Positions 3,093-52,750 of a stretch of DNA of 64,000 bases are shown here, piece by piece. The DNA is from a virus (lineage: Duplodnaviria > Heunggongvirae > Uroviricota > Caudoviricetes): positions 13,660 through 77,659 of IMG/VR virus record IMGVR_UViG_3300049003_000001, one strand, 5' to 3'. The position numbers were made by a program, and so were the translations under genes. The notes under the pieces were generated by a model that was given only the letters and a program-made list of their open reading frames with translations, did no database searches and was not told the DNA's origin. How positions within the stretch are numbered: position 1 is the stretch's first letter; every line of letters begins with the position of its first letter.

Positions 3093-6000
3093 GTGAAGTC
3101 TGAGCTTGCAGCATTGCAGGCTCAGTTTGCCGCTCTCTCAAAGGAAATGGACGCGGCCCGTACCAAGGGTCCGCTTGTCAATAATGCACAGCAGTACGCT
3201 CAGCAGCTAGACAAGGTAAACGCGCTCCGCAACGGATTCACCTCAATGGTCCGCGAGGGCGAGAACGTCCACAAGGTACTCACCCCTGGCTTTAATCAGA
3301 TGATGCAGGCCACGGGTGCCTTTGAGGTACGCACGGTAAAGACCGTTAGCGCGTCTCAGCAGTTGACCAAGGCCATCATGGATCAGAAGGTCAGCGTTAC
3401 CGGCGCTATGCGTAACTTTGGAGAATTCCGCAAGACTCTACGCGACGTTTACACCGAGCAGGAGAAGCTACGTAAGGCTTCTGCTATTCAGTGGAAGACC
3501 GATTCGAATGGCAAGAACAACACCACCGATTTGTACCTGCCGAAGAACATTACTCCGGAACTGGTCTCAGCGCAGACCAAGTACGGCACAATGCTTTCCA
3601 CGTTGCAGGCAATGGGTACCGCAACGCAGAATTGGGGTAAGAACACGCAGTGGGCCGGTCGCCAGATCACGGCCGGTTTCACCATGCCTCTTCTACTCGC
3701 AGGCGCGGGGCTAGCAAAGCTAGCTTACACGGCTGACCAGCAGCTTACCCGTATTACCAAGGTTTACGACACGAACACAAAGGTAACCGGAAACGCTCTG
3801 GAAAAGCAGGCTTCCCAGGAGGCCGAGCTTGCTCAGGTCCGCGTTGACAGCCTTAACAATGCGACGAGGCTGGCACAGACCTACGGAGCATCTCTAAAGG
3901 ATACTCTGTCGGTAACGGCGGACCTTGCCGCTATTGGTAGGAAGGGTCACGACCTGTATGCGGACACCGCTCAGGTAACCCGTATTGCGACGCTAGGTGA
4001 ACTTGACCTACAGGACGCAATGTCCATGACTATCACGCTCATGAATACCTACAAGATGAGCACGAAGGAATTGGGAGATTCCTTCAACTACATGAACGAC
4101 CTTGAAAACGCTACGAGCCTTTCGACCCAGGACTTCGCGCAGGCGATTCCGCGTGCGGCTAGCTCGATGGCGTCTCTAGGCGTTTCATTCAAGGATTTCG
4201 GTGTCCTTATGGTTGCCATGAAGGAAGGTGGAGTTGACGCCGTTCAGGGCGCTAACGCGCTAAAGAGCGCGACCGGACGCTTGCTCAACCCGACTGCCGA
4301 GGCGAAGGCCGCATTCGATGCTATGCACATTTCCATTGAGCAGGTTGTCAAGTCTGCCGGTGGTAACCTATTCGAAACCCTAAAGGCCCTTGCTCCGCAG
4401 ATGGCCGGATTTGACGCGCTGACTCAGCAGGCCGCGATTAAGTCTCTATTCGGAACCTACCAGTTCAACCGCATGAACGTTGTTTTGCAGAACCTTGGCT
4501 CTGCCCTTGCGGGCACGAGCACGGAGTTCTCGCAGACCGCGAAGGCGATTGAGGAATCCAAGAAGAGCACGCAGGAATGGGCGCAGGTAGCCGACGCCGA
4601 AATTAAGCAGTTCCAGCAGTCGTCTTCCGGACGTATGAAGATTGCGATTGCGACTCTACAGGCCGACCTGACCAAGATGGGTGCCCCGATCCTAGAGGCG
4701 CTTATCCCGGTTGTTGGCGCTCTAGGCGATATCGTCAAGTTCCTTACCGACCTACCAGGCCCGATTAAGACTGCGGCCAAGTGGTTCGGAATTATCATGG
4801 GTGTCGCCGGTCCGTTGATGATGGTTGTCGGTATTTTCGCTAACTTCGCGGGTACGATTATGAAGGTTGCGGGAGCCACCGGACGCCTTCTAACCGGATT
4901 CAAGATGCTTAATGACGAAACAGCAGCGGACAACGCGCTGACGGCGACCTCTATCCAGACCAAGGACAAGGCCGCTCAGGCGACCGCCACCCTGGCCTTG
5001 CGTATGCAGGAATTGGTCAAGATCATGGAGCAGCGTCTTGCTCTACAGGAAGAAATCAACATTGCCGAAATGGGCGGGGTCAGGAACGCATCAAGCGCGA
5101 TGACCGCCACCACAGCGGCTAATTCTGGTGGAAATCTTTGGGGACCGGCTGCCGGACAGAAGGTAGCCCCGACTCAGACCAACCCGCTATTGTGGGGTAA
5201 GGAAGGTGCTGCCGAGGCGTCTGCAAAGGTAGCTGCCAACGCGGAGAAGACCGCAATTTCCTGGGGCAAGGTCGGTGCCAACGTCGGCGCGCTAGCAATT
5301 GGCGCAACGATGATGGGCAGCATGGTTGACGGCTCTGGTAGCATTGCAACAAATCTTATTCAGGGCTCAATCGCTTTCGCCATGCTTGCGCCGGTCATCG
5401 GACAGGTTGTCCAGAAGATCAAGGCAATTCGCGTGGCTCAGGCAGCGATGGCAACTGAGGGTGTAGCGGGAACCAGCCTAATCGGCGCGGGATTCGGCAA
5501 GGTGAAGAACCTTGGAAAGAGTGCGTTCAGCGCTGTCGCCTCCGGAGCTAAGTGGCTATTCACCACGGGTCCGGGACTCATGACCGCCGGACTTGTCGCG
5601 GCCGGAATCGCGTGGCTGGCAATCGATAATTACATGAACCGTGCCAGCCGTCGTCAGGATGAAATCAACAAGTCTACCGACACCTGGCGCTCAATCCTGG
5701 GGTACACCGGACAGTCTCTTGAAGATATCACCGGAAAGTTCGATCCGTCTAAGCGCTTCGGTGCTTTGAGCAAGGCCGCAACGCAGTTGTCGGACCAGAA
5801 TCAGGGATTGGTTGACGCTCTAGGCGAGGCCAAGGGGAACTTGAACAAGGTATATGGCCTTGCCATGAACGAGGCTTTGAAGGTCCGCGTGGACGGTGGA
5901 ACCGCAATTCAGGCCAAGATGGCATTTGACGTTGCGCTAAAGGCTGCCGGTATCGGTCAGTCTGATTTCGATAAGCTCAACATCAGGTTCGACAAGATTG

Positions 6001-8831
6001 ATCTTGAAGACCCGCAGGCGGTTGCTGACGCCATCAACAGCCAGATTCAGACCGCGCTCGACGCCTCAAAGAATCCTGATTTCCACCTAAGCGGTGGATG
6101 GACGGGCTCGCTGTGGAATAGCTTGACCACGCCGGGAAGCGCTCGCGGAACCGCCAACGGCCTTCTAGGTGACGACGCATCGGCCATGTTCAAGAATGTT
6201 GGAAACGACATTTACAACGCTATCGCTAACGCAATTCAGAGTGGAGACCCGACGCAGATCGACTCCGCGATGAAGTCGCTGACCTCTGGCTTGAACAACA
6301 CCTTCAAGGATTCATTCAACGACATTCGCTCGCAGGGTGACAACGCGAAGATTTTCAAGGAAATGGGCATCACGTCCATGACCCAGCTTCGTGACGCGAT
6401 GATTGCGGCCTCGTCGGCGGACAAGAAGGGCACCGCCACACAGATTCAGAAGAATCTTCTAGGCGCGGGCATCACGAACAATGACCAGTACAAGGAATAC
6501 TACCAGGCTTGGAAGACGATGCTTGACGCCATTGGCGCGGCGTCGGGTCTAAAGGGCAAGGCTCTAACTGACTTCCAGCAGAAGATTCTTACGATTGCCG
6601 GGCTAGGAAGCCACTTCAAGAGTTCTATGGACGGAAACGCCGATGGTGTCAAGAAGCTCGGTGACGCGGCTCAGACGGCTGCCGGGGACATTAGCAGTCT
6701 AGAGGACGCGATGAACACCACGGGCGCTATTGCCACGGGCTCGCAGTACGCGGACGAAATGAAGTCGGCTTACGGTGGAACAATCTCCACCTACGTAAGC
6801 CAGATTTCTGACGCCTACAGCAAGGCTGAGCAGGCAGCAGCGGACCGCATTCAGGCCGGTGGAGACAAGCGTCAGGCAGCTTTTGAGTCTCAGCTAAAGG
6901 GAATTGCCGCAAGGTACAAGGCCCTAGGCAAGACCTACGATAACGACATGGAGGCGGCGAAGACTGCTGCCGATGGAAAGATCGAGGCTATCAACGGTCA
7001 GATCGATGCGCTAAAGAAGGAGGACGACGTACGTCAGGAGCTATTCGACAACGAGAAGACTCGCATCTCTCGTCTAGCCGAATTGTCGAATGACAACACC
7101 GACTTCAACGCAGCGCTGAATTCTGGAAACTTGGACGAGGCTGCCAAGATTTACAACAACTCTACCGCCAAGGTTCAGGGTTGGAGGATGGACGATCAGG
7201 AAGCGGCAATGGCTAAGGCCAATGCCAAGAAGACTGAGCAGCTACAGGCGCAGATCAAGCAGATCGAGACAGATCGTGACGCTTATGTCAAGGCAATTCA
7301 GGACAAGAAGGACGCTCTATCTGATTTGCAGCAGGCCGAGGAAGACGCGGTAAACGCAGCAAAGGACGCTGACCAGAAGCGCACGCAGGCTTCTATCAAG
7401 GCGAGCAACGACCGTTACGAGGCCGACAAGAAGGCTATTCAGCTACAGCTTGACGCTATTACGGCATTCGTGCCGCAGTCGGTGGGTCAGGTGCAGACGC
7501 AGATCGGGCAGATTAACGCGGCCTACCAGGGCTACGGATACCAGCTACAGGGATACTCTAGCACGTGGTCGAAGGAAATTGGAAACGACCTTAACTGGAA
7601 TATCCAGAAGGCAGCTTCCGCATTGCAGTCTGATATTGGATGGAGCCAGATTGGTACGTTCATTCAGCAGCAGATCGACTCTGGCGCGGCGTTCACGCTA
7701 GAGCAGGCGCTTACCTTCCTAAAGACTGGCGTTTGGCCGAAGAACATTGGCGGCTCTAATGCGGGTGTGGGTGCGGGTGCTGCCGCGAAGTGGCTTCCGT
7801 CAACCCCCGCAAATATCCGCGAGACCGGAAATGGTCGCCAGGTCACCGGAGGTAAGGGTGGCATGGGCGGTAGCACGAGCTACGCGACGGGTGGTTACAC
7901 CGGCCACGGTGGAAAGTACGAGCCAGCCGGTATTGTCCACAAGGGTGAGTTCGTATTCCCACAGGAAGCCGTAGAGCGTATCGGTATCGATAAGCTAGGT
8001 ACGTGGGCCGGTCTTCCGGGATATTCTAGCGGTGGTCTCGTAGGCCAGGCCATCGGAATGCGTGAAATCCTTAACGCCGGTATTATGGCAAAGGCTGCCA
8101 AGGACGCCGCAAATGGCGCTTGGGCAGCGGCCAACGCCGGGCCGGTTGGTAAGGGTGCGGCTGACGCTCTCGGATACACCGGAGGCGTCGGAGGAAGCGT
8201 TGCAAAGGTATTGGCAGTAGCCCGCTCAATGATGGGTACTCCGTACATTTGGGGTGGCGCTGGCGCTGGCGGTGCGGACTGTTCCGGATTCATGAGCATC
8301 ATCGAGAACGCAGTTTTCGGAAAGGTTCCGCCGTACGGCCGCCGCTGGGCAACTGCTAGCTTCGCTGGTGGTAAGGAAATCGACGGTTGGAAGCGTGGCG
8401 GTTCTGCCGCAAACGTATTCCGTATCGGTGTCGATCCGGGTAGCCACGTCGCGGGTACCTTCGCTGGTCACTCTGTGGAATCGGGCTCAGGCCACGGACC
8501 ACGCGTTGACGGAAATGCTCTAAACGCTTCTTCCGGATTCAAGTACCAGTATTACCTACCGGCGGCTGACAGGATTCCTCAGCTATACAAGGGTGGAACA
8601 ATCAGGTACGACAACACCCTTGCCAATCTCCACAAGGGCGAGACGGTATTGACCGCTCCACTAACGGAGAAGTTGCAGGATAATGTTGCTTCCGGATTGG
8701 GTAACACATACAATGTAGATATTGATATGAGCAATTCCAGCTTTGACAGTCAGATTGACTTTGAGCGTGGCGTAAAGCGCGCGTTGGAGCAGATTGACGC
8801 AAAGACTGGTAGGACGAGGGTGATTAACTGA
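3093..8831 (+). CDS. tape measure protein with C-terminal NlpC/P60-like peptidase domain
   Basis: 1912-aa ORF with a long Ala/Gln/Lys-rich coiled-coil centre and hydrophobic segments. An NlpC/P60 signature YIWGGAGAGGADCSGF...H...H lies near aa 1700-1790. GTG start. It sits after G/GT. Confidence 0.9.
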   Translation: MKSELAALQAQFAALSKEMDAARTKGPLVNNAQQYAQQLDKVNALRNGFTSMVREGENVHKVLTPGFNQMMQATGAFEVRTVKTVSASQQLTKAIMDQKVSVTGAMRNFGEFRKTLRDVYTEQEKLRKASAIQWKTDSNGKNNTTDLYLPKNITPELVSAQTKYGTMLSTLQAMGTATQNWGKNTQWAGRQITAGFTMPLLLAGAGLAKLAYTADQQLTRITKVYDTNTKVTGNALEKQASQEAELAQVRVDSLNNATRLAQTYGASLKDTLSVTADLAAIGRKGHDLYADTAQVTRIATLGELDLQDAMSMTITLMNTYKMSTKELGDSFNYMNDLENATSLSTQDFAQAIPRAASSMASLGVSFKDFGVLMVAMKEGGVDAVQGANALKSATGRLLNPTAEAKAAFDAMHISIEQVVKSAGGNLFETLKALAPQMAGFDALTQQAAIKSLFGTYQFNRMNVVLQNLGSALAGTSTEFSQTAKAIEESKKSTQEWAQVADAEIKQFQQSSSGRMKIAIATLQADLTKMGAPILEALIPVVGALGDIVKFLTDLPGPIKTAAKWFGIIMGVAGPLMMVVGIFANFAGTIMKVAGATGRLLTGFKMLNDETAADNALTATSIQTKDKAAQATATLALRMQELVKIMEQRLALQEEINIAEMGGVRNASSAMTATTAANSGGNLWGPAAGQKVAPTQTNPLLWGKEGAAEASAKVAANAEKTAISWGKVGANVGALAIGATMMGSMVDGSGSIATNLIQGSIAFAMLAPVIGQVVQKIKAIRVAQAAMATEGVAGTSLIGAGFGKVKNLGKSAFSAVASGAKWLFTTGPGLMTAGLVAAGIAWLAIDNYMNRASRRQDEINKSTDTWRSILGYTGQSLEDITGKFDPSKRFGALSKAATQLSDQNQGLVDALGEAKGNLNKVYGLAMNEALKVRVDGGTAIQAKMAFDVALKAAGIGQSDFDKLNIRFDKIDLEDPQAVADAINSQIQTALDASKNPDFHLSGGWTGSLWNSLTTPGSARGTANGLLGDDASAMFKNVGNDIYNAIANAIQSGDPTQIDSAMKSLTSGLNNTFKDSFNDIRSQGDNAKIFKEMGITSMTQLRDAMIAASSADKKGTATQIQKNLLGAGITNNDQYKEYYQAWKTMLDAIGAASGLKGKALTDFQQKILTIAGLGSHFKSSMDGNADGVKKLGDAAQTAAGDISSLEDAMNTTGAIATGSQYADEMKSAYGGTISTYVSQISDAYSKAEQAAADRIQAGGDKRQAAFESQLKGIAARYKALGKTYDNDMEAAKTAADGKIEAINGQIDALKKEDDVRQELFDNEKTRISRLAELSNDNTDFNAALNSGNLDEAAKIYNNSTAKVQGWRMDDQEAAMAKANAKKTEQLQAQIKQIETDRDAYVKAIQDKKDALSDLQQAEEDAVNAAKDADQKRTQASIKASNDRYEADKKAIQLQLDAITAFVPQSVGQVQTQIGQINAAYQGYGYQLQGYSSTWSKEIGNDLNWNIQKAASALQSDIGWSQIGTFIQQQIDSGAAFTLEQALTFLKTGVWPKNIGGSNAGVGAGAAAKWLPSTPANIRETGNGRQVTGGKGGMGGSTSYATGGYTGHGGKYEPAGIVHKGEFVFPQEAVERIGIDKLGTWAGLPGYSSGGLVGQAIGMREILNAGIMAKAAKDAANGAWAAANAGPVGKGAADALGYTGGVGGSVAKVLAVARSMMGTPYIWGGAGAGGADCSGFMSIIENAVFGKVPPYGRRWATASFAGGKEIDGWKRGGSAANVFRIGVDPGSHVAGTFAGHSVESGSGHGPRVDGNALNASSGFKYQYYLPAADRIPQLYKGGTIRYDNTLANLHKGETVLTAPLTEKLQDNVASGLGNTYNVDIDMSNSSFDSQIDFERGVKRALEQIDAKTGRTRVIN

Positions 8832-36173: not shown

Positions 36174-38033
36174 ATGTTTGATTTTGACGATTTCCTTTCG
36201 ATTGTAGAGGACGGCGATCTAGAAGAGATTCCCGTAGATATTGACACATTCATTCAGGACGAGCGCTACCTGAACCGTCCCGAGGTCACATTGTCGGACT
36301 ACCAGCGACAGTGTATCCTCGCGTCCACTCAGATTTACCGCAAGTCAACTCTGTTGCAGTTCCTCTCGGATAAGGAAGCCGAGAAGCGCTGGCAGCAGAC
36401 CTGCAATGAGGTAATCCTACAGCTAGGCAAGGGTTCGGGTAAGGACTTCATGTCCGCTATCTCGTGTGCCTACATGGTTTACCTATTGCTTTGTCTGAAA
36501 GACCCGGCCAGGTATTACAACAAGCCGTCCGGTGACACCATCGATATTCTGAACATCGCGCAGAACTCCGCACAGGCGTCTAACGTCTTCTTCGCCAACG
36601 TATCCCGATTGATCCAGAAGGCCCCGTGGTTCGTGGGCAGGTACGAGACCAAGGGCGGGTCGGCGGAACCGGCGAAGGCAAACCAGATCGACTTTGACAA
36701 GAATGTAACCCTGTACTCAGGCCACTCCGAGCGAGAGGCGTGGGAGGGCTATAACGTCATCATGGTTATCCTTGACGAGATTGACGGTTTTGCCAACGAC
36801 TCCGCATCCGGTGTTATGGGTAAGACCGCTGCCGGTATTTACGATATGTACCGCGCCTCCGTTGATTCCCGATTCGGTGAGTTTGGCAAGGTGCTCGCGC
36901 TGTCCTTCCCGCGTTACAAGGGCTCATGGATTCAGACGCGCTACGATCAGATCGTTGCCGCGAAGACCACGGTTGTCCGCACAGAAATCCTAAAGCTCGA
37001 CCCGGACCTCCCGGACGGCTTTGAGGGAAATGAAATCAAGATCGAGTGGGACGAGGACCACATCGAGCAGTACAAGTATCCGAAGATGTTCGCCTTGAAG
37101 CGTCCGACCTGGGACGTTAATCCACACAAGCACATCGAGGAATACGCTCGTGCATTCTTCGATAACTACATCGACACCCTCAGCCGTACCGCGTGTATGC
37201 CACCGGACGCCATCGACGCGTTCTTCAAGGACACGCAGAAGGTCAACGACGCATTCACTTCTACGAATATCGTGAGCAACGACGACGGCCGTTTTGATGA
37301 AAACCTTGCGCGACCGGACGACAGCAAGCTATACTTCGTCCATGTTGACCTCGCCCGCAAGCACGACCGCTGTGCGGTGGCGATGGGACACGTTGAGGGG
37401 TTCGTTCAGCGCAAAATTGGTCAGATTACTACCGAGCCTGCGCCGCTCATCAAGATCGATTCACTCAGGTATTGGATTCCTAAGAAGGACCAGCCGGTAG
37501 ACTTCACTGACGTTCGTCAGCATATTCTCGATTTGGCCCGCGCCGGGTACAATATCCGACTGGTCACGTTCGACCAGTGGGAGTCTGCTGACATGAGGAA
37601 ATACTTGGAGCAGGCCGGGCTAAGGACCGACAAGCTGTCGGTAGCAATCAAGCACTATACAGACTTCGCGGTTGCGGTGGCCGAGGGGCGTCTAGAGGGT
37701 CCGGACGAGCCACTATTGCGCGAAGAGCTTCTAGCGCTTAGAATTATGCAGAACGGAAAGATCGACCACATGCGCCAGGGATATAAGGACTTGTCCGACG
37801 CCACGTGTGGTGCTATCTTTAACGCAATTGCCCTGACGCCTCGTGAGCGAAACACCGAGGTCGAGGTCAGGACATATAAGGACGTAAAGAAGCAGGTCGT
37901 CAACGACACTGTGGCTAAGCAGCTTGCCGAGCAGGAAGCCCGCAAGGTAATCCGCGCCCCCTCGGCTAAGGCCACGGGTAAGCAGATGCCTAAGCAGCTA
38001 TTTGATTGGATTAACAGCGCCAAGGTGCTGTAA
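36174..38033 (+). CDS. terL: terminase large subunit
   Basis: Walker A QLGKGSGKD. Walker B VIMVILDEIDG. C-terminal RNaseH-like nuclease Asp cluster (VHVDLARKHDR...). Confidence 0.85.
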   Translation: MFDFDDFLSIVEDGDLEEIPVDIDTFIQDERYLNRPEVTLSDYQRQCILASTQIYRKSTLLQFLSDKEAEKRWQQTCNEVILQLGKGSGKDFMSAISCAYMVYLLLCLKDPARYYNKPSGDTIDILNIAQNSAQASNVFFANVSRLIQKAPWFVGRYETKGGSAEPAKANQIDFDKNVTLYSGHSEREAWEGYNVIMVILDEIDGFANDSASGVMGKTAAGIYDMYRASVDSRFGEFGKVLALSFPRYKGSWIQTRYDQIVAAKTTVVRTEILKLDPDLPDGFEGNEIKIEWDEDHIEQYKYPKMFALKRPTWDVNPHKHIEEYARAFFDNYIDTLSRTACMPPDAIDAFFKDTQKVNDAFTSTNIVSNDDGRFDENLARPDDSKLYFVHVDLARKHDRCAVAMGHVEGFVQRKIGQITTEPAPLIKIDSLRYWIPKKDQPVDFTDVRQHILDLARAGYNIRLVTFDQWESADMRKYLEQAGLRTDKLSVAIKHYTDFAVAVAEGRLEGPDEPLLREELLALRIMQNGKIDHMRQGYKDLSDATCGAIFNAIALTPRERNTEVEVRTYKDVKKQVVNDTVAKQLAEQEARKVIRAPSAKATGKQMPKQLFDWINSAKVL

Positions 38034-38091: not shown

Positions 38092-38616
38092 ATGCAGCTA
38101 GAGTTGTCACGACAGGAAACGATTGAAATACTAACCATCCGCGACGGCTATACCTGCATGTTCCCGGACTGCACGGAGCCTTTGACGGATACCGGCAACC
38201 ACATGGTCACGCTTGACCATATTTACCCACAGGCGCTAGCGAAGCGCGACGGTTGGTCTATTGATAAGATCAACCATATCAACAACCTACAGTTGATGGG
38301 TAAGAACTGCAACGCTCGTAAGGGCCACCTAATTCCTGACGAAAACGGAAATTTGCCGTTGAAGGTCAAGGAGCCTCGCGCCCTAGCCAAGTCTGAGCGA
38401 CCAGTTATTTGCGAAACTTGCTACGCCGGAAGGTTGCTATTTCTCGGAGAGGAATGCTACGATTGCGGTAGCGGCCCGCAGCCAGCGATTGCCCCAAAGG
38501 CGACACAGAAGACGCCGAAGGAATGCACGCACGCGGGTCATGACCACTGTTGGATGTGCTACCTGGGATTTGTCGAGCGTTCATCCGCCCTGACCAACCT
38601 TGTGACTGGCAAATAG
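38092..38616 (+). CDS. HNH endonuclease with C-terminal zinc fingers
   Basis: DHIYPQA...N...NCNARKGH His-Me finger. TAG stop backed by an in-frame TAA 3 codons downstream. Confidence 0.7.
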   Translation: MQLELSRQETIEILTIRDGYTCMFPDCTEPLTDTGNHMVTLDHIYPQALAKRDGWSIDKINHINNLQLMGKNCNARKGHLIPDENGNLPLKVKEPRALAKSERPVICETCYAGRLLFLGEECYDCGSGPQPAIAPKATQKTPKECTHAGHDHCWMCYLGFVERSSALTNLVTGK

Positions 38617-38629
38617 ACAAAGGAATAAA

Positions 38630-39691
38630 GTGAACATCGCTGAATTGTTCGACAAGGAACTGTTTCAGCAGATGGTGGATGAGAAGATGGTGACCGTTCG
38701 AAATCACGACGGTCATCCTCTTCTCATTGCCAACTACTCAGACGCGGTTCAGTTCCGGAATTACTGGAACGAGGTCACGCTTAACTGCCGTGGTCTCATC
38801 TTTGATTGGGATGGGGAAATTCTCGCCCGTCCGTGGAAGAAGTTCTTCAATTTGGGGGACAGCAAGGCTCCGTGGATCGGCTTTGACGACCGCGTTGAGG
38901 TTACCGACAAGATGGATGGCAGTCTTGGCATTCTTTACATGTACGACGGCAAGCCGTCAATCTCCACTCGTGGCTCGTTCCACAGCACACAGGCCGGGTG
39001 GGCGACGAAGCACATTCGTAAGATTGAAGGACTCGATCTTCGATTTGCTCCGCATTTCACTTTCCTATTTGAGATTATCTACCCTACGAACCGAATTGTT
39101 GTTGATTACGGACGTTTCGAGGGTCTGGTTCTCCTGGGGGCGGTCGAGGTTGAGAACGGTCACGCAATTGGGCCGAATGAGGCAGCCGCTCTCCTGAATT
39201 GGCCGGGACTCACCACGGAGCTAATGCCGCATAAGTCGATCAACGATGTGCTGGCAGCGTCGGACCGTGAGAACACCGAGGGCTACGTCATCCGCCGGGG
39301 CGACGATATGGTCAAGTGGAAGCGTCCCGATTACATCAATCTCCACCGCCTTATCTCAAACCTTTCCGAGAAGTCGGTATGGAGCGGGCTAGAGGGCGGG
39401 AAGACGCCAGAGCAGTTGTGCGAAGACCTTCCGGACGAATTCCACGGATTCGTCAAGGAAACGTCATTCAAGCTAAAGCTGGCATTCCAGACCCGAATCA
39501 ACGAGGTGCAGCGGACATTCGGCAAGGTGATGTATGACCTGCCGGTTATGCCCCCGAGCCGCAAGGATTTCGCATGGGCCGTTCGGGACAATCCGGATAA
39601 GGCATACATGTTCGCTCTGCTAGACGACAAGGACATTGCTCCGATGGTCTGGCAGGAGCTAAAGCCAAAGGGCGAGCCAGAGGTCCGGTGA
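38630..39691 (+). CDS. RNA ligase (Rnl, KxDG nucleotidyltransferase)
   Basis: Motif I VTDKMDGSLG (KxDG). GTG start. Adjacent to Pnkp and the tRNA islands. Confidence 0.7.
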   Translation: MNIAELFDKELFQQMVDEKMVTVRNHDGHPLLIANYSDAVQFRNYWNEVTLNCRGLIFDWDGEILARPWKKFFNLGDSKAPWIGFDDRVEVTDKMDGSLGILYMYDGKPSISTRGSFHSTQAGWATKHIRKIEGLDLRFAPHFTFLFEIIYPTNRIVVDYGRFEGLVLLGAVEVENGHAIGPNEAAALLNWPGLTTELMPHKSINDVLAASDRENTEGYVIRRGDDMVKWKRPDYINLHRLISNLSEKSVWSGLEGGKTPEQLCEDLPDEFHGFVKETSFKLKLAFQTRINEVQRTFGKVMYDLPVMPPSRKDFAWAVRDNPDKAYMFALLDDKDIAPMVWQELKPKGEPEVR

Positions 39692-40647
39692 ATCAAATAC
39701 CGTACATGATGGCGAATACGCCAGAAGAGTTCTATAGAGTTAGGGATTTAGGTGTGAGTAATTTGCTGGCCCTCCGGGGCATCAGCGGGTCCGGGAAGAG
39801 CACCTACGCTCGTGAGCTAAAGGCTCAGGGCTGGGTGGTCGTATCCCGAGACGACATTAGAGAAACCATGTTCCGCGATTACCAGTCGGTAGACGAGGAC
39901 GTGGTAACCGTCGTGCAGGATGCCGCAATTCGGGCAGCCTTGAAGGCCGGACGCCGGGTCGTGGTTGATGACACGAATATCCGGGTGAAGTACCTAAAGC
40001 GATTCGTCAAGATTGCTCAGGACGCCGGGGCTCTGTTTGAGGTAAAGCAGTTCGATTGCGACGCTAACGAAGCAATCAAGCGAGTCGAGAAGCGTTTCAT
40101 GGACGGTGGCCGGAATGTCCCAGAAATGGTCATTCGCAAGCAGGCTCAGGGGCTAAAGTCTAGTAAGCTAGACTGGAATGAGCTTTACGACCAGGGTCCG
40201 ACCTTTGAGCCTTACGAGCGACCCGCAGGAAAGCCTTGGGCAATTCTGGTGGACGTGGATGGCACTCTGGCTCATAACGACGGCCACCGGGGCTGGTACG
40301 ATTACGAGAAGGTCTACGGCGATATCGTCAAGGAAGACATTGCGGAAATCGTCCGGACGTATGCCGAGGGCGGATATCATAAGGTAATCATCATGAGCGG
40401 CCGGGATGATGTATGCCAGGACGAGACTGCCAGGTGGTTGACGGATAACGGAATTCCGTTTGATGAAATCCACATGCGGAAGACCGGCGACCAGCGGAAG
40501 GATTCCATCGTTAAGATGGAGTTGTTCGATGAGTTTGTGCGGGACAACTACCGGGTGGAGTTCGTATTGGACGACCGTAATCAGGTTGTCGAGGCATGGC
40601 GTGGCATCGGTCTCACTTGCCTACAGGTTGCGCCGGGAGACTTCTAA
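39688..40647 (+). CDS. pnk: polynucleotide kinase-phosphatase (Pnkp)
   Basis: N-terminal P-loop GISGSGKST kinase. C-terminal HAD phosphatase motif VDVDGTL...MSGR...DD. Confidence 0.8.
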   Translation: MNQIPYMMANTPEEFYRVRDLGVSNLLALRGISGSGKSTYARELKAQGWVVVSRDDIRETMFRDYQSVDEDVVTVVQDAAIRAALKAGRRVVVDDTNIRVKYLKRFVKIAQDAGALFEVKQFDCDANEAIKRVEKRFMDGGRNVPEMVIRKQAQGLKSSKLDWNELYDQGPTFEPYERPAGKPWAILVDVDGTLAHNDGHRGWYDYEKVYGDIVKEDIAEIVRTYAEGGYHKVIIMSGRDDVCQDETARWLTDNGIPFDEIHMRKTGDQRKDSIVKMELFDEFVRDNYRVEFVLDDRNQVVEAWRGIGLTCLQVAPGDF

Positions 40648-41214: not shown

Positions 41215-41285
41215 GCGCCTGTAGCTTAGCGGCAAAGCAGCCCTCTCTAAAAGGGTGTACGCCGGTTCGAATCCGGTCAGGCGCA
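41215..41285 (+). tRNA. tRNA with anticodon CUA (amber-suppressor-like, Sup)
   Basis: Acceptor GCGCCTG/CAGGCGC. D GCTT/AAGC. Anticodon stem GCCCT/AGGGT with loop CT-CTA-AA (U33, A37). T-arm GCCGG-TTCGAAT-CCGGT. 4-nt variable loop. Confidence 0.7.
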
Positions 41286-41728
41286 CGTGATTCAAGATAT
41301 CGTCATCCGTGGCACGTCCCGGTACATCTCTTACCGCCGTGCAGACGGGAGTCCGGCTTATGCCACTCTTTACAACGCCGACCTCTCGTGCGACCATGAC
41401 GTGCGAGCTAAGGAATTGTGGGAGGGCGGCGGGGTCACTTGCCGCAAATGCGAGGGGTGGTTCTGCTACTGATGATCTGGTATGACGCAGTGACGTACGA
41501 GCCGGTAGCGCCGGGTGAGGGCGAGGACGGTGGTCGCCCTTCTATGGAGTATTACTACTGCCCTCGGTGCAAGGTAGCACGGACGATGGTCGAGAAGATG
41601 CGGGCCATGATCTGTGAGGTCTGCCGGACTGTATTGCTGGTCCGATGAAGCAGCCAGAGGCATTCATCCTGTTTGCGGCGTTTTTAGTCCTCGTGATGGT
41701 GATGCTACATGCGGCGTAAAAGAAAAAT

Positions 41729-46941: not shown

Positions 46942-47748
46942 TTGGGTAAGTTCCTAGGCGGCCTTTTCGCCTTCTTTGCTTTTATTCTTGCAATTCTTCT
47001 TTTCATGTCGAGCACCACAATCGGTGCGCGGTCGGTCGGTATTCAGACCAGCTTTGGCAAGTACGTGAACACGCTGCCGTCAGGTCACCATTGGGCCAGC
47101 CCGTTCTCGTCTGTCGAGGAATTCAGCACTCTCACGCAGAACCTTCACCTCAATGGTGGAAATGGTGACGACGAGGGTCCGAAGACGCCGGTTGCCTTCA
47201 AGGGCGGGGCCTCGGGCAACGTCGATGCCACGATTCGTTGGAGGATCAGCGACGACGGCGCACAGAAGCTTTGGAGGGACTACAAGACCTTCGCCAACGT
47301 GCAGAACAACCTCGTCCGTGCCGATGCTCAGAACTCGCTCCGGATTGAGTTTTCCAATTTCACTCCGGTGGACGCTCGTGACGGCAATAACCTGAACACG
47401 ATTATGACGAACGTGCAGAAGTCGCTGGCCGGAAAGCTAAAGAGCTACGGCGTGTCGGTTGACTCCATTCAGATCACGAACGTGGAGCTTGGTCGGCAGG
47501 CTCAGTCGTCCATTGACCGAATTGTCGAGGCTAACGCCAACGTGCAGCGCGCGGAGGCTGAGCAGCAGAAGGCCACCATCGAGGCGCAGACTGCACAGAT
47601 TCGTCAGACCACGCAGACTCCGGAGACCTTGCAGCGCTATTGCCTAGAGGTCGTCAACGCCTGGGACGTGAGCAAGAATGGTCCGCTTCCGGCGACCTTC
47701 AACTGTGGGCTGTCTGAGAACAGCGGATCGGTTATCGTAGGTAAGTAA
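46942..47748 (+). CDS. SPFH/band-7 (HflK/C, prohibitin-like) membrane protein
   Basis: N-terminal TM helix. The central SPFH-like region and coiled-coil IQITNVELGRQAQSSIDRIVEANANVQRAEAEQQKATIEAQ are typical of the band-7 family. Confidence 0.55.
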   Translation: MGKFLGGLFAFFAFILAILLFMSSTTIGARSVGIQTSFGKYVNTLPSGHHWASPFSSVEEFSTLTQNLHLNGGNGDDEGPKTPVAFKGGASGNVDATIRWRISDDGAQKLWRDYKTFANVQNNLVRADAQNSLRIEFSNFTPVDARDGNNLNTIMTNVQKSLAGKLKSYGVSVDSIQITNVELGRQAQSSIDRIVEANANVQRAEAEQQKATIEAQTAQIRQTTQTPETLQRYCLEVVNAWDVSKNGPLPATFNCGLSENSGSVIVGK

Positions 47749-49117: not shown

Positions 49118-49120
49118 CTT

Positions 49121-49188
49121 GCGGGATAGTGAAATCGGTATCATAGAGGGCTCATAATCCTCAGTTGGCGTTCGAATCGCCTCCCGCC
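49121..49188 (+). tRNA. tRNA-like, anticodon CAU (Met/Ile2?), atypical or degenerate
   Basis: Anticodon stem GAGGG/TCCTC with loop CT-CAT-AA. 6-bp acceptor GCGGGA/TCCCGC. However, the variable-loop-plus-T-stem region is 2 nt too short for a canonical fold. Confidence 0.4.
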
Positions 49189-49204
49189 CCCATTTAGTAC
49201 ACCG

Positions 49205-49234
49205 CCCCAGGTCTCCGGCCTGGGGTTTTTCTTT
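49205..49234 (+). terminator. rho-independent terminator closing tRNA island 3
   Basis: CCCCAGG-tctccgg-CCTGGGG followed by TTTTTCTTT. Confidence 0.75.
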
Positions 49235-49243
49235 GGAGGAATA

Positions 49244-49558
49244 ATGATTGAACTAACTAATACATTTGACAATGAAGTAATTGCTGCCTCATACGCGGGC
49301 GTGACCGTGGCGTATTTCACGGCTCCGTGGTGCGGACCCTGCCGGATGCTAAAGCCCCGGCTGGAAGAGCTAGAAAACGAGAATCCGGGATTGACGGTTA
49401 TCCGTATCGACGCTAGTATTGAGACAGACCTTGCGATTGAGCACCGGGTGATGAGCGTTCCGACGCTTCTCGTCTACAGCGGCGGATATCAGGTGGCTCG
49501 TATCGAGGGAATCAAGCCGAAGAACGTCCTACAGGAGACGTTCGCCAAGTACCTCTGA
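49244..49558 (+). CDS. trx: thioredoxin
   Basis: WCGPC active site. GGAGGAATAATG RBS. 104 aa. Confidence 0.8.
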   Translation: MIELTNTFDNEVIAASYAGVTVAYFTAPWCGPCRMLKPRLEELENENPGLTVIRIDASIETDLAIEHRVMSVPTLLVYSGGYQVARIEGIKPKNVLQETFAKYL

Positions 49559-49566
49559 GGAATTAG

Positions 49567-49965
49567 ATGAATCTCCGTCAAGGGTTTAGAGCCCTCGCCA
49601 ATAACGGTCTGGCTATCGGATCAGTCCTACTTTGCACAAATATGATCGGTGCCTGGCTGTTCATGCTGGCTGAGCACCACTCTTGGCGGGATTCATTCTA
49701 TTGGGCGTGGATTACTTCTCTTTCAATCGGTTATGGGGATATTAGTCCCGAGACGTGGCCGGGAAAGATGATTGCCATGTGTCTCGGAGCTTTCGTCCTA
49801 TACGTGATGACGCCGCTGGTTGTCGGAAAATTTGTCATGGCAGCCCTTGCGAACCAGCACGAATTCACGCATACTGAACAAGAAGAAATCAAGGGGGCTC
49901 TCGCGGGAATCACCGAGAAGTTGACCCTCATGCAGCACGATATCAATATGATGGAGATGAAGTGA
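49567..49965 (+). CDS. minimal K+ channel-like protein (2TM/P-loop, Kcv/KcsA-like)
   Basis: TSLSIGYGD matches the K+ selectivity filter TxxTxGYGD. It is flanked by hydrophobic helices (LAIGSVLLCTNMIGAWLFMLA and MIAMCLGAFVLYVMTPLVVGKFV) with a pore-helix FYWAWIT. 132 aa. Confidence 0.65.
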   Translation: MNLRQGFRALANNGLAIGSVLLCTNMIGAWLFMLAEHHSWRDSFYWAWITSLSIGYGDISPETWPGKMIAMCLGAFVLYVMTPLVVGKFVMAALANQHEFTHTEQEEIKGALAGITEKLTLMQHDINMMEMK

Positions 49966-50474
49966 AGAAGAAGCTAGCCGCCCTGGCAATTGCCGCTCCG
50001 CTAATCGCGGGAGGGCTAAGCGGTTGTGGTGGCGGTCAGTACCACACCGTTGCCGCACAGCAGACCTATTGCGTCGATTCGGCCGGTCACGTGGTTGACC
50101 CGTCGTGGTGCAACGTCGGCAACGTGCATTACAACCCCTCGGTTTACGTTTTCTGGATGGGCGACTCACACGGCCACTCGTACCACCGGGGTTCTACTAT
50201 TCCCCGTAGCTACTACCGTTCGGGTAAGCGAATTAACCCGTCGTCTGCTAGCGCTCGCAAGGCCGCTGGCCTCCCGGCTACCGGCACCGTCCGCAGTGGC
50301 AGCAGCCCAGCTAAGTCGCAGACCGCGCCTTCGCGTAATTCCAGCACGAGCAAGACCAGCGTGGGTGGCTCCACCTCGCGTAGCAGCACGACCTCCCGTA
50401 CGAGCGTCGGTGGCAGCACGTCCCGTAGCTCCGGAGGTTTCAGCGGCAGCCGCTCATCCGGAGGTCGCCGGTAA
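49962..50474 (+). CDS. lipoprotein with Ser/Thr-rich repeat tail
   Basis: Signal peptide plus lipobox LSGC. C-terminal tandem repeat TSVGGSTSRSS(x2) within a low-complexity S/T/R region. Confidence 0.55.
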   Translation: MKKKLAALAIAAPLIAGGLSGCGGGQYHTVAAQQTYCVDSAGHVVDPSWCNVGNVHYNPSVYVFWMGDSHGHSYHRGSTIPRSYYRSGKRINPSSASARKAAGLPATGTVRSGSSPAKSQTAPSRNSSTSKTSVGGSTSRSSTTSRTSVGGSTSRSSGGFSGSRSSGGRR

Positions 50475-50683
50475 TGAATGTTGAATTGCAGACCATCGAT
50501 GGTCAGTTCTTTAGCTCTGATCCGTTCGACAACGAGTACGACGTGAATCTGACCAGCGTGGCCGACGAGCTACGCGGACTATTCACTAGCTGGCGGGAGA
50601 TGGATTACCTCTCGCTGGTCATCGGCGGGCGGGTCCGGTATTTCAACCCGGCCAACGTGCTGTGGGCGGAAATCGTTAACTGA
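50474..50683 (+). CDS. hypothetical protein
   Basis: 69-aa ORF. Confidence 0.3.
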   Translation: MNVELQTIDGQFFSSDPFDNEYDVNLTSVADELRGLFTSWREMDYLSLVIGGRVRYFNPANVLWAEIVN

Positions 50684-51000
50684 TGTTCAAGCATGTTGAC
50701 ACGACCCGTCCGTATCCCGCAACCGAAATGACGACGGCGAAGTGGAAGCAGGTTCCGTGTTTTTGGGTGGATATCAGTGACCTGATTGCTACCCAAGAGG
50801 GCGTGAATTTTCAGCCGCTTATCGTCATCGACCGGGCAATGCGGTACACCTCGCACAGTGGTGATATTCACCCGCACGTCGTGTCCTGGCGGGGTAACCT
50901 ATATCTGGAAGACGGCCATCACCGCACGGTCGGCAGACTGTTTGATGGAAAGAAGACAGTCTTCGCCCGAGTGTTGACCATCGTAGACCACGGAGAGTAG
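50683..51000 (+). CDS. ParB-like nuclease domain protein
   Basis: LYLEDGHHRTVG matches the ParB/Srx DGHHR motif. 105 aa. Confidence 0.5.
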   Translation: MFKHVDTTRPYPATEMTTAKWKQVPCFWVDISDLIATQEGVNFQPLIVIDRAMRYTSHSGDIHPHVVSWRGNLYLEDGHHRTVGRLFDGKKTVFARVLTIVDHGE

Positions 51001-51113
51001 AATGTTTTTCGTATATCTGGCGCTTGGCGTTCTGATTCTGCTCGCACTCTACGGATGGACGCTCCGAAAGAATGCGCCAAACAATAGTCTATTTGATGGT
51101 TGGGAGGATTAAA

Positions 51114-51278
51114 ATGGGATTTACTGAGATTCTTACCCTCATCTTCATCGTGCTAAAGCTGACGCATCAGATCGACTGGTCGTGGTGGTGGGTGCTCTCT
51201 CCGGAGCTTTTCGTCATCGTGCTCTACGTGGTGTTCGCCATCGTCGGCGCGAGCGTTTTTAAGCTTTTCCGCAGGTAA
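51114..51278 (+). CDS. small membrane protein
   Basis: 54-aa ORF with a GGGAGG RBS and two hydrophobic helices. A 36-aa membrane ORF at 51001..51111 precedes it. Confidence 0.3.
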   Translation: MGFTEILTLIFIVLKLTHQIDWSWWWVLSPELFVIVLYVVFAIVGASVFKLFRR

Positions 51279-51322: not shown

Positions 51323-51394
51323 GGTTCCGTAGCGTAGGGGAAACGCGGTGGTCTTCTAAACCACTAAACGTTGGTTCGAATCCAACCGGAATCA
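51323..51394 (+). tRNA. tRNA-Arg(UCU)
   Basis: D GCGT/ACGC. Anticodon stem GTGGT/ACCAC and loop CT-TCT-AA. T-arm GTTGG-TTCGAAT-CCAAC. Confidence 0.8.
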
Positions 51395-52386: not shown

Positions 52387-52719
52387 GGGCCTGACTTGGT
52401 TTCGACTCTTAGTGGACATTGTTAGACGCAGCCGGTCTTGGGTAGAGACCTTAAACAACTCAAAATAATAAATGCAGACTACGACATTGTAGCTGAGGCA
52501 GAGGCCATCACCCGTGAGGCCGCTGCCGCCCTTGTTTCTGCCTGATCTAAACCCTCAGGATTGACAAGCAGGGAACAGTGGACGCCCTGATAACCAAACG
52601 TCCCTAGCAACACCCTAGCACTGCCGTGAGAAATGCAAGACCCGCCGGGGATACGGATGGCTGTAATTCGGATTTCAAGATAAGCTAGGAACACGCGGGT
52701 TCGACTCCCGCCAGGTCCA
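52387..52719 (+). ncRNA. ssrA: tmRNA (SsrA)
   Basis: The 5' end GGGCCTGACTTGGTTTCGAC and 3' end GCGGGTTCGACTCCCGCCAGGTCCA parallel the E. coli tmRNA termini. The acceptor GGGCCTG/CAGGTCC has the G3·U70 Ala identity pair. A candidate tag frame GCA GAC TAC ... GCC TGA reads ADYDIVAEAEAITREAAAALVSA*. Confidence 0.7.
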
Positions 52720-52750
52720 CGTGAGGATTATTGAAAAGGGAATCCTAGAG

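Follow-up and report, generated by a model that had tools for sequence, protein, structure and literature searches.

Does a 132-amino-acid (aa) protein encoded by an uncultured tailed phage form a potassium channel, and does it act together with the genes packed around it? The open reading frame (ORF) in question lies at positions 49567–49965 (+ strand) of a 64,000-nucleotide (nt) stretch of the IMG/VR record IMGVR_UViG_3300049003_000001, hereafter the window. A first, sequence-only reading of this DNA had proposed a miniature K+ channel within an operon of envelope-acting genes, and each of the ORFs that it described was found in place on the + strand (Table 1). Taken as a whole, the explanation that we consider likely is that the ORF encodes a mini K+ channel of a known family, with a role in host K+ and membrane potential and with a lipoprotein, encoded by the next gene, as its candidate partner.

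A predicted pore-only potassium channel

On the combined grounds of sequence comparison and structural modelling, ORF 49567–49965 encodes a predicted pore-only K+ channel subunit of the KcsA/MthK/Kv pore-domain superfamily. The protein matches Pfam PF07885 (Ion_trans_2) with 48.6 bits against a gathering cutoff of 22.5 (E = 7.4e-13), and PHROG 14690 over residues 7–120 (E = 1.5e-30). Searches of PDB sequences with phmmer returned only K+ channels (K2P/TASK, TOK, KCNQ, Kv, MthK, KvLm and KcsA), while a profile of the family matched 254 solved K+ channel sequences. When the family profile was compared by hhalign with a KcsA sequence, residues 21–78 aligned to KcsA 36–100 with 98.4% probability, a likeness that had been suspected from the sequence and that was corroborated by Foldseek and profile searches of the PDB.

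Structural evidence points the same way. Hydropathy analysis gave two transmembrane (TM) segments with peaks at residues 15–33 and 68–86, and a monomer model built with AlphaFold2 (AF2) on 106 relatives reached a predicted local distance difference test (pLDDT) score of 96.9, with helices at residues 3–11, 14–36 (TM1), 40–51 (pore helix), 64–93 (TM2) and 102–131. A Foldseek search of the PDB with this model placed full-length KcsA (3eff) first, and K+ channels made up all 50 of the top 50 matches; the model overlays KcsA with a root-mean-square deviation of 1.4–1.9 Å over ~83 residues. Among predicted viral structures in BFVD, phage and giant-virus K+ channels matched best and holins only at noise level. 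The topology is that of two TM segments and a re-entrant pore helix, with cytoplasmic N- and C-termini, and all functionally critical residues are intact. The claim of two TM segments and a pore loop (2TM/P) is thus borne out by Pfam, PHROG, hydropathy, the AF2 model and fold matches confined to K+ channels; AF2, Foldseek and the profiles agree on a P-loop fold in which GYGD occupies a context compatible with a re-entrant loop.

The JGI gene call for the channel (P0001) starts at M26 and is 107 aa long, which would remove most of TM1. We favour the 132-aa form because a GAGGA Shine-Dalgarno sequence lies 5 nt before the ATG at 49567, with none before M26, and because residues 1–25 are conserved in homologs (for example, 90 of 103 sequences have N or D at the position of N12).

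The protein and KcsA/MthK are alike in the LAE that ends TM1, an aromatic pore helix, GYGD and a P-x-T-x-x-G-R/K sequence after the filter, and a C-terminal helix is present in both full-length KcsA (3eff) and the window channel. The turret is 7 residues shorter than that of KcsA and short as in MthK, Ile occupies the position of KcsA E71, and the G99 hinge has no Gly counterpart; a near-invariant proline, P83, is found further down TM2, and counting residues places it at about the position of PVP in Kv channels. Unlike MthK, the window channel has no RCK domain. A looser analogy holds with the chlorovirus/phycodnavirus Kcv channels, which are likewise virus-encoded, minimal and pore-only with a GxGD filter, and with which the window channel would share the principle of a tetrameric K+ pore. 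It does not belong to the Kcv family: BLASTP similarity to Kcv extends over only the ~30 residues that surround the filter, algal-virus channels in BFVD match weakly (E ~0.15 or worse), and the window channel has a structured tail of 38 residues, whereas Kcv, which resides in the internal membrane of the virion, has no cytoplasmic tail.

A catalogued family with a conserved tail motif

An exhaustive search with the channel gave 2148 cluster representatives at E ≤ 1e-3, including more than 100 short single-pore relatives; conservation figures refer to an alignment of 106 such relatives. E36, G55, G57, D58, P61, E104 and Q105 are invariant, W46, T50, Y56, G66 and P83 are at least 90% conserved, and the filter consensus is T-x-x-[T/S]-x-G-Y-G-D. 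No cysteine is conserved in this alignment.

The family also has its own cytoplasmic tail, in which (N/D)-x-x-x-F-T-H-x-E-Q-E is followed by a helix whose heptad a/d positions (108, 112, 115 and 119) are hydrophobic in 78–96% of members. When the family profile was searched against the PDB, no solved structure aligned over the F-T-H-x-E-Q-E motif. We infer that the tail helix is a putative tetramerising coiled coil and that the His/Glu-rich ring formed by the motif may act as a gate or sensor just below the inner-helix bundle. The invariant E104-Q105, together with the conserved H102 and E106, falls just after TM2 and resembles the R-E-Q-E-R of KcsA, whose pH-sensor residues at the bundle crossing are H25, E118 and E120. 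Homology of the tail motif with KcsA E118-Q119-E120 was considered and is not supported, as the profile alignment with KcsA ends at residue 78, short of both tails, the window tail does not align with the pH-sensor region, and the spacing from filter to motif differs by 8 residues; the resemblance is retained as a lead only.

Short channels of this kind (~115–190 aa) are widespread on bacterial chromosomes and in many tailed phages. Using tblastn, we found homologs in ~16 cultured phages with 33–41% identity and 70–94% coverage, including Acinetobacter phage ME3, Pseudomonas phages ventosus and phiPsa, Streptomyces phages Muntaha, Wakanda, BillNye and Circinus, Mycobacterium phages Myrna (gp260) and Phabba, and Aeromonas LAh phages. 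A scan with a 16-sequence alignment identified relatives on at least 116 IMG/VR contigs, many of them from jumbo phages; at least 364 stretches in GTDB genomes also encode relatives, and short members with the tail motif were found at 27 viral loci and 19 genomic ones. In a neighbour-joining tree, viral sequences are interspersed with cellular ones. The possibility that the bacterial homologs are prophage cargo was considered and set aside, the sampled copies being flanked by housekeeping genes. Myrna, Phabba, ME3, ventosus and BillNye had already been listed as carriers of putative K+ channels in a study that did not assay the phage channels (Greiner et al. 2018, PMC6163359). With that listing, a PHROG of its own and the IMG/VR count, the family is more common than the sequence-only reading had implied, and ORF 49567–49965 adds a divergent branch to a catalogued family and is not new in kind.

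The phage channels of PHROG 14690 (117–126 aa) have the same 2TM/P layout and the same C-terminal (N/D)-x-F-T-H-x-E-Q-E as the window channel, and in the Streptomyces phages of this group the gene sits in a tRNA-rich arm, as it does in the window. The window channel differs from them in its slightly longer tail and in belonging to a separate, metagenome-only sub-branch together with P0002–P0008; only in this sub-branch is the gene preceded directly by thioredoxin and followed directly by a lipoprotein.

RefSeq and PHROG name the family 'cAMP-dependent Kef-type K+ transporter' (NC_070786 gp158, NC_011273 gp260 and NC_041884 gp314). CPA2, cNMP-binding and TrkA_N domains gave no matches in the 132 aa, and Ion_trans_2 was the only domain found. 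Because the protein contains a pore domain only, the name is unsupported and, judged by domain content, a misnomer. The locus flags a systematic mis-annotation along with the truncated gene call in the source metagenome.

A lipoprotein gene paired with the channel

The gene that follows the channel encodes a predicted lipoprotein, whose signal peptide reads MKKK, then AALAIAAPLIAGG, then L-S-G-C22, a recognizable lipobox. The Cys22 codon is at 50025–50027, and Cys22 is invariant in seven homologs; invariant residues in the homolog alignment are C22, Y36, C37, C50, P59, W65, H72 and Y74. The conserved ectodomain of ~75 aa contains C37, C50 and H72 and gives way to a variable, low-complexity tail rich in S, T, G, P and R with basic residues at its end. 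The sequence-only reading had correctly identified the lipobox LSGC; its 'tandem' TSVGGSTSRSS repeat turned out to consist of two copies in the protein with 4 residues between them, and TRF found no DNA tandem repeat in this tail. Database searches yielded four homologs of the lipoprotein only, and those of Pfam and PHROG gave no family match.

Five metagenomic contigs (L004, L005, L006, L008 and L009) carry a channel 55–66% identical to that of the window, with thioredoxin upstream in each case (in L009 one extra small ORF lies between). Directly downstream of the channel, a lipobox protein is encoded in all six channel-bearing genomes of this clade, that is, the window and the five contigs: L005, L006, L008 and L009 have a clear homolog of the window lipoprotein that overlaps the channel stop codon, and L004 has a shorter lipobox protein. 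Another relative, L170, has neither channel nor lipoprotein, and sequence comparison indicates that the two genes are present together or missing together at a mosaic slot. At 157 more distant channel loci no convincing lipoprotein homolog was found, limiting the pairing to the window's sub-branch.

In the clade, no gene other than the lipoprotein is found with the channel every time, and on gene content the lipoprotein is the best candidate for a channel partner on the outer membrane face. The window's DnaE polymerase is ~60% identical to those of Stanwilliamsviridae Streptomyces phages, which makes an actinobacterium the most likely host; in such a host the lipoprotein would be located at the outer surface of the cytoplasmic membrane.

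In two distant phages the position of the lipoprotein gene is taken by a 66-aa acidic soluble ORF that overlaps the channel stop (Muntaha gp159, L001 4371–4571; ME3 gp315, L003 3378–3578).

Proposed role and rival explanations

Made after infection, the channel would insert into the host cytoplasmic membrane with both termini inside, four subunits would assemble around a K+-selective pore, and the C-terminal heptad helix, whose conservation is indirect support for a tetramer, would tetramerise as a coiled coil. Opening would raise K+ conductance, moving the membrane potential toward the K+ equilibrium potential (E_K) and allowing K+ to re-equilibrate. The earlier suggestion that such a cluster could depolarise the host is doubtful, as a pore selective for K+ would draw the potential toward E_K without collapsing it. 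Tentatively, we see the most likely role in controlling the K+ of the cytoplasm and the membrane potential while the phage replicates; such control could serve a phage that invests heavily in translation, with 31 tRNAs, a transfer-messenger RNA (tmRNA) and RNA repair genes.

Several observations weigh against this interpretation of the locus. The six co-occurrences of channel and lipoprotein come from related phages, five of the six from one metagenome series, and could be explained by synteny through descent with no functional link; tight gene overlaps are, moreover, normal across the cassette. The cassette lies directly behind a terminator-like hairpin without room for a promoter of its own. 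Within the protein, the glycine of the KcsA hinge is missing, and in the filter Ser replaces the canonical Thr at the S4-site position (residue 53), a substitution common to 29 of the 106 relatives (75 have Thr) that keeps the hydroxyl. The channel is found in only 4 cultured Streptomyces phages, compared with 211 Streptomyces phage records matching DnaE, and is dispensable, given that few Streptomyces phages carry it and L170 does without it. A literature search found no later functional study of any phage member.

The next most likely role, one that we regard as possible but on the unlikely side, is superinfection exclusion, in which the lipoprotein on the outer face would block DNA delivery by an incoming phage and the channel would alter the potential that rivals need for entry. 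Lipoproteins such as Ltp and Llp are exclusion factors in other phages. In favour of such a pair are the strict co-occurrence of channel and lipoprotein, which fill or vacate a mosaic slot together, the conserved and probably disulfide-bonded ectodomain, and the sporadic distribution of both genes as dispensable accessories. Against it, more distant phages have the channel without the lipoprotein, the lipoprotein resembles no known exclusion protein or defence model, the source phage gives no sign of being temperate, and a K+-selective pore alone does not abolish the membrane potential.

We find it doubtful that the two genes go further and constitute an obligate membrane module, gained or lost as a unit, in which the lipoprotein is an extracytoplasmic auxiliary subunit, F-T-H-x-E-Q-E and the coiled-coil tail define an undescribed gating class common to phages and bacteria, and the whole reprograms host membrane potential or K+ or excludes rival phages.

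Far less probable is that the channel gene is neutral or decaying bacterial cargo without a role in infection. Bacterial homologs do occur among housekeeping genes, phage and cellular sequences interleave in the tree, and related phages carry the gene sporadically. Even so, all critical residues are intact, the gene has a similar tRNA-arm position in Stanwilliamsviridae, and the filter, P61, G66, P83 and E104/Q105 are retained at 33–66% identity across divergent phages, which argues for long-term purifying selection on the channel.

The proposal of the sequence-only reading that all seven genes form one envelope-acting operon fares a little worse still. Overlaps of 1–4 nt and the placement of the genes between the hairpin and a tRNA gene indicate that they are probably co-transcribed, but their association breaks down in relatives. 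L170 is collinear with the window through small ORFs, tRNA-Asp, tRNA-Lys, thioredoxin (65% identity), the ParB/Srx-fold protein (65%), the 36-aa and 54-aa membrane peptides (52% and 74%), tRNA-Arg and tmRNA, and a 29-aa TM peptide fills the slot that in the window holds channel, lipoprotein and the 69-aa ORF. Conversely, the three contigs that reach past the lipoprotein (L004, L005 and L008) have thioredoxin, channel and lipoprotein, and none of the three encodes the ParB/Srx gene; homologs of the 54-aa peptide are also present in L004 and L008. Thioredoxin and the ParB/Srx protein have no signal peptides or TM segments and are of a soluble, cytoplasmic type, the channel has no conserved cysteine as a thioredoxin target, and at none of the 157 more distant loci does the channel's strand carry a thioredoxin homolog within 4 kb. 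Only the lipoprotein tracks the channel; as far as gene content goes, thioredoxin, the ParB/Srx protein and the small peptides are backbone neighbours and not parts of the channel system. A functional link between thioredoxin and the channel, through redox control or disulfides of the lipoprotein, was likewise rejected: the channel family lacks a conserved cysteine, thioredoxin lacks an export signal, and thioredoxin persists where the channel is absent.

Least probable of all is that this small phage-encoded membrane protein is a holin-like factor in lysis timing or a virion-delivered entry channel, given that no endolysin, holin or lysis gene is annotated near the cassette, the gene lies in the replication, RNA-repair and tRNA arm outside the structural and lysis modules, holins match the channel model at noise level, the intact GYGD filter favours a selective pore over a non-specific hole, and tailed phages are not known to possess a membrane inside the virion in which a channel could be carried. 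The precedent for a viral K+ channel acting at entry is chlorovirus Kcv (PMC6163359).

Phage-encoded K+ channels have been listed since 2018, and what they do in infection is a modest question. The locus contributes a divergent family branch, a candidate partner from which a two-protein hypothesis follows, and a cytoplasmic motif found across the family whose mutation could probe gating; the lipoprotein pairing and the conserved tail motif are the modest new points. The protein has ~130 residues and a structure predicted with very high confidence, and it would make an easy minimal model channel; for its biology the cultured relatives Muntaha, BillNye, Myrna and ME3 are better suited than the uncultured source phage.

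Organization of the cassette

Seven closely packed ORFs on the + strand run from thioredoxin up to a tRNA-Arg at 51323 (Table 1). Every one is preceded by a Shine-Dalgarno sequence, and junctions consist of overlaps of 1–4 nt (GTGA, TAATG, TGATG) or gaps of 1–8 nt.

Table 1. Features of the channel cassette and of the channel subunit, in window coordinates.
Feature	Position	Strand	Description
tRNA-Met	49120–49192		Last gene of tRNA cluster
GC-rich hairpin with 10-bp stem, then T-run	49204–49226	+	Between tRNA-Met and thioredoxin, ~17 nt before thioredoxin start; from scan for terminator-like elements
Thioredoxin, 104 aa	49244–49558	+	WCGPC; Pfam match
K+ channel subunit, 132 aa (predicted)	49567–49965	+	Pfam, PHROG, AF2, Foldseek
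N-terminal amphipathic helix	Start of channel subunit	+	Feature of the 132-aa protein
TM1, residues 14–36	49606–49674	+	Ends in family-invariant E36 within LAE motif, as in KcsA
Pore helix, residues 40–51 (FYWAWIT, Y45/W46), and filter T50-S-L-S-I-G-Y-G-D58	49684–49740	+	AF2, sequence
TM2, residues 64–93	49756–49845	+	Entry P61-x-T63-x-x-G66-K/R67; near-invariant P83; V77 at KcsA G99-equivalent
Cytoplasmic tail	49864–49959	+	F100-T-H-T-E104-Q105-E106 motif, then helix 102–131
Lipoprotein, 170 aa (predicted)	49962–50474	+	Lipobox LSGC; GTG start overlaps channel stop (GTGA)
Acidic soluble ORF, 69 aa	50474–50683	+	No family match
ParB/Srx-fold protein, 105 aa	50683–51000	+	Pfam PF23719, AF2, Foldseek; L-I-A-T-Q and L-E-D-G-H-H-R motifs
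Single-TM membrane peptide, 36 aa	51002–51112	+	Hydropathy
Membrane peptide, 54 aa, phrog_1374	51114–51278	+	PHROG match, Shine-Dalgarno

As the sequence-only reading had noted, the group lies directly behind a terminator-like hairpin at the end of the tRNA cluster. For the stretch 49204–49236, a hairpin followed by a T-run is found at the matching position in relatives (L005 1728–1765, L170 5545–5575 and L004 7455–7492), with stem sequences that differ among the window and these three contigs through compensatory changes. The element is probably a terminator, an attenuator or a processing element of the tRNA cluster that abuts the ribosome-binding site of the next gene. No promoter fits between the hairpin and the first Shine-Dalgarno sequence, and expression is therefore probably by read-through, which would hold channel levels low.

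Thioredoxin is a clear Pfam match (E = 1.5e-19) with a WCGPC active site; against TIGR01068 it scores 74 bits, under the equivalog cutoff of 96.8, and hydropathy gave no hydrophobic segment or signal peptide. The 69-aa ORF had no family match in profile searches and no tblastn match in the related loci examined.

The 105-aa protein had been described as a ParB-like nuclease. It matches Pfam PF23719 ('VapB-like', E = 3.2e-24), and searches of the PDB by sequence and by profile gave no match, so that it was placed by fold: with its AF2 model (pLDDT 84.7), Foldseek matched 2hwj (Atu1540), sulfiredoxin and the N-terminal domains of ParB, Noc and KorB in the PDB with probability 1.0 and TM-scores of ~0.5–0.58. 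The fold is shared with Atu1540/ParBc_2, sulfiredoxin and the ParB N-terminal CTPase, and the D-G-H-H-R within the invariant L-E-D-G-H-H-R is of ParBc_2 type. However, the protein lacks the catalytic Cys of Srx, the GERRxR box of ParB and any DNA-binding domain; the ParB/Srx likeness therefore stands at the level of fold, and 'nuclease' is unsupported.

The two tiny membrane peptides reported earlier are present, and the end coordinate given then for the group, 51000, leaves them out. For the second, the phrog_1374 match spans residues 14–63 of a longer ORF that begins at 51072, and a GGGAGGA Shine-Dalgarno sequence precedes 51114; the gene most likely starts at 51114 and encodes 54 aa, rather than starting at 51072.

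Source phage and genome surroundings

The phage origin of the window is evident from its tape measure and minor tail proteins, Streptomyces-phage-like DnaE, 31 tRNAs and tmRNA. Its gene order begins with the tape measure and minor tail genes and continues with DnaB, primase, SSB and DnaE polymerase; then come MazG, a UvsX/RecA-like recombinase, a Cas4-like exonuclease and RuvC, followed by a dNMP kinase, an HNH endonuclease, an RNA ligase and a polynucleotide kinase, and finally the 31 tRNAs and tmRNA among small genes. A near-identity DNA search of INPHARED with the cassette and 25 kb of the window gave no useful match.

A membrane-anchored Band_7/SPFH protein (phrog_200, E = 4e-52) is encoded at 46942–47748 (+), ~1.8 kb ahead of the channel cassette; the relative L004 encodes one as well (5033–5884). 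Proteins of the SPFH group organise microdomains in membranes and are able to regulate channels. Defence-system models compared with this protein and with all cassette proteins gave noise only.

The RNA ligase (phrog_562) and polynucleotide kinase (phrog_505) are paired at 38630–40647 (+), directly upstream of the tRNA islands, and are consistent with a tRNA-repair module, as would suit a defence against anticodon nucleases of the host. The first tRNA island opens with a tRNA with anticodon CUA (41215–41286, +), of amber-suppressor type and labelled 'Pyl' by ARAGORN. It prompted us to consider genome-wide recoding of TAG, which was rejected because TAG terminates 7 of the 62 long ORFs of the window, the ParB/Srx ORF among them. 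Read-through of TAG in that ORF would append 28 codons, and regulated TAG read-through in the source phage is possible. The tmRNA, at 52387–52720 (+), carries the tag peptide ADYDIVAEAEAITREAAAALVSA; a syntenic homolog in L170 (7671–7995) has a different tag.

Among the replication genes, a 619-aa ORF at 36174–38033 (+) has a weak match to the terminase large subunit (E = 4.5e-16) and adjoins the HNH endonuclease at 38092–38616; its likely homolog in L170 (1–1306) carries Pfam MJ0330_N. This ORF may encode an ATPase or nuclease that is terminase-like but serves a different role. Within the tape measure protein (1912 aa, 3093–8831, +), C-terminal residues ~1586–1833 match the endolysin family phrog_971, which suggests that it holds an embedded cell-wall hydrolase domain.

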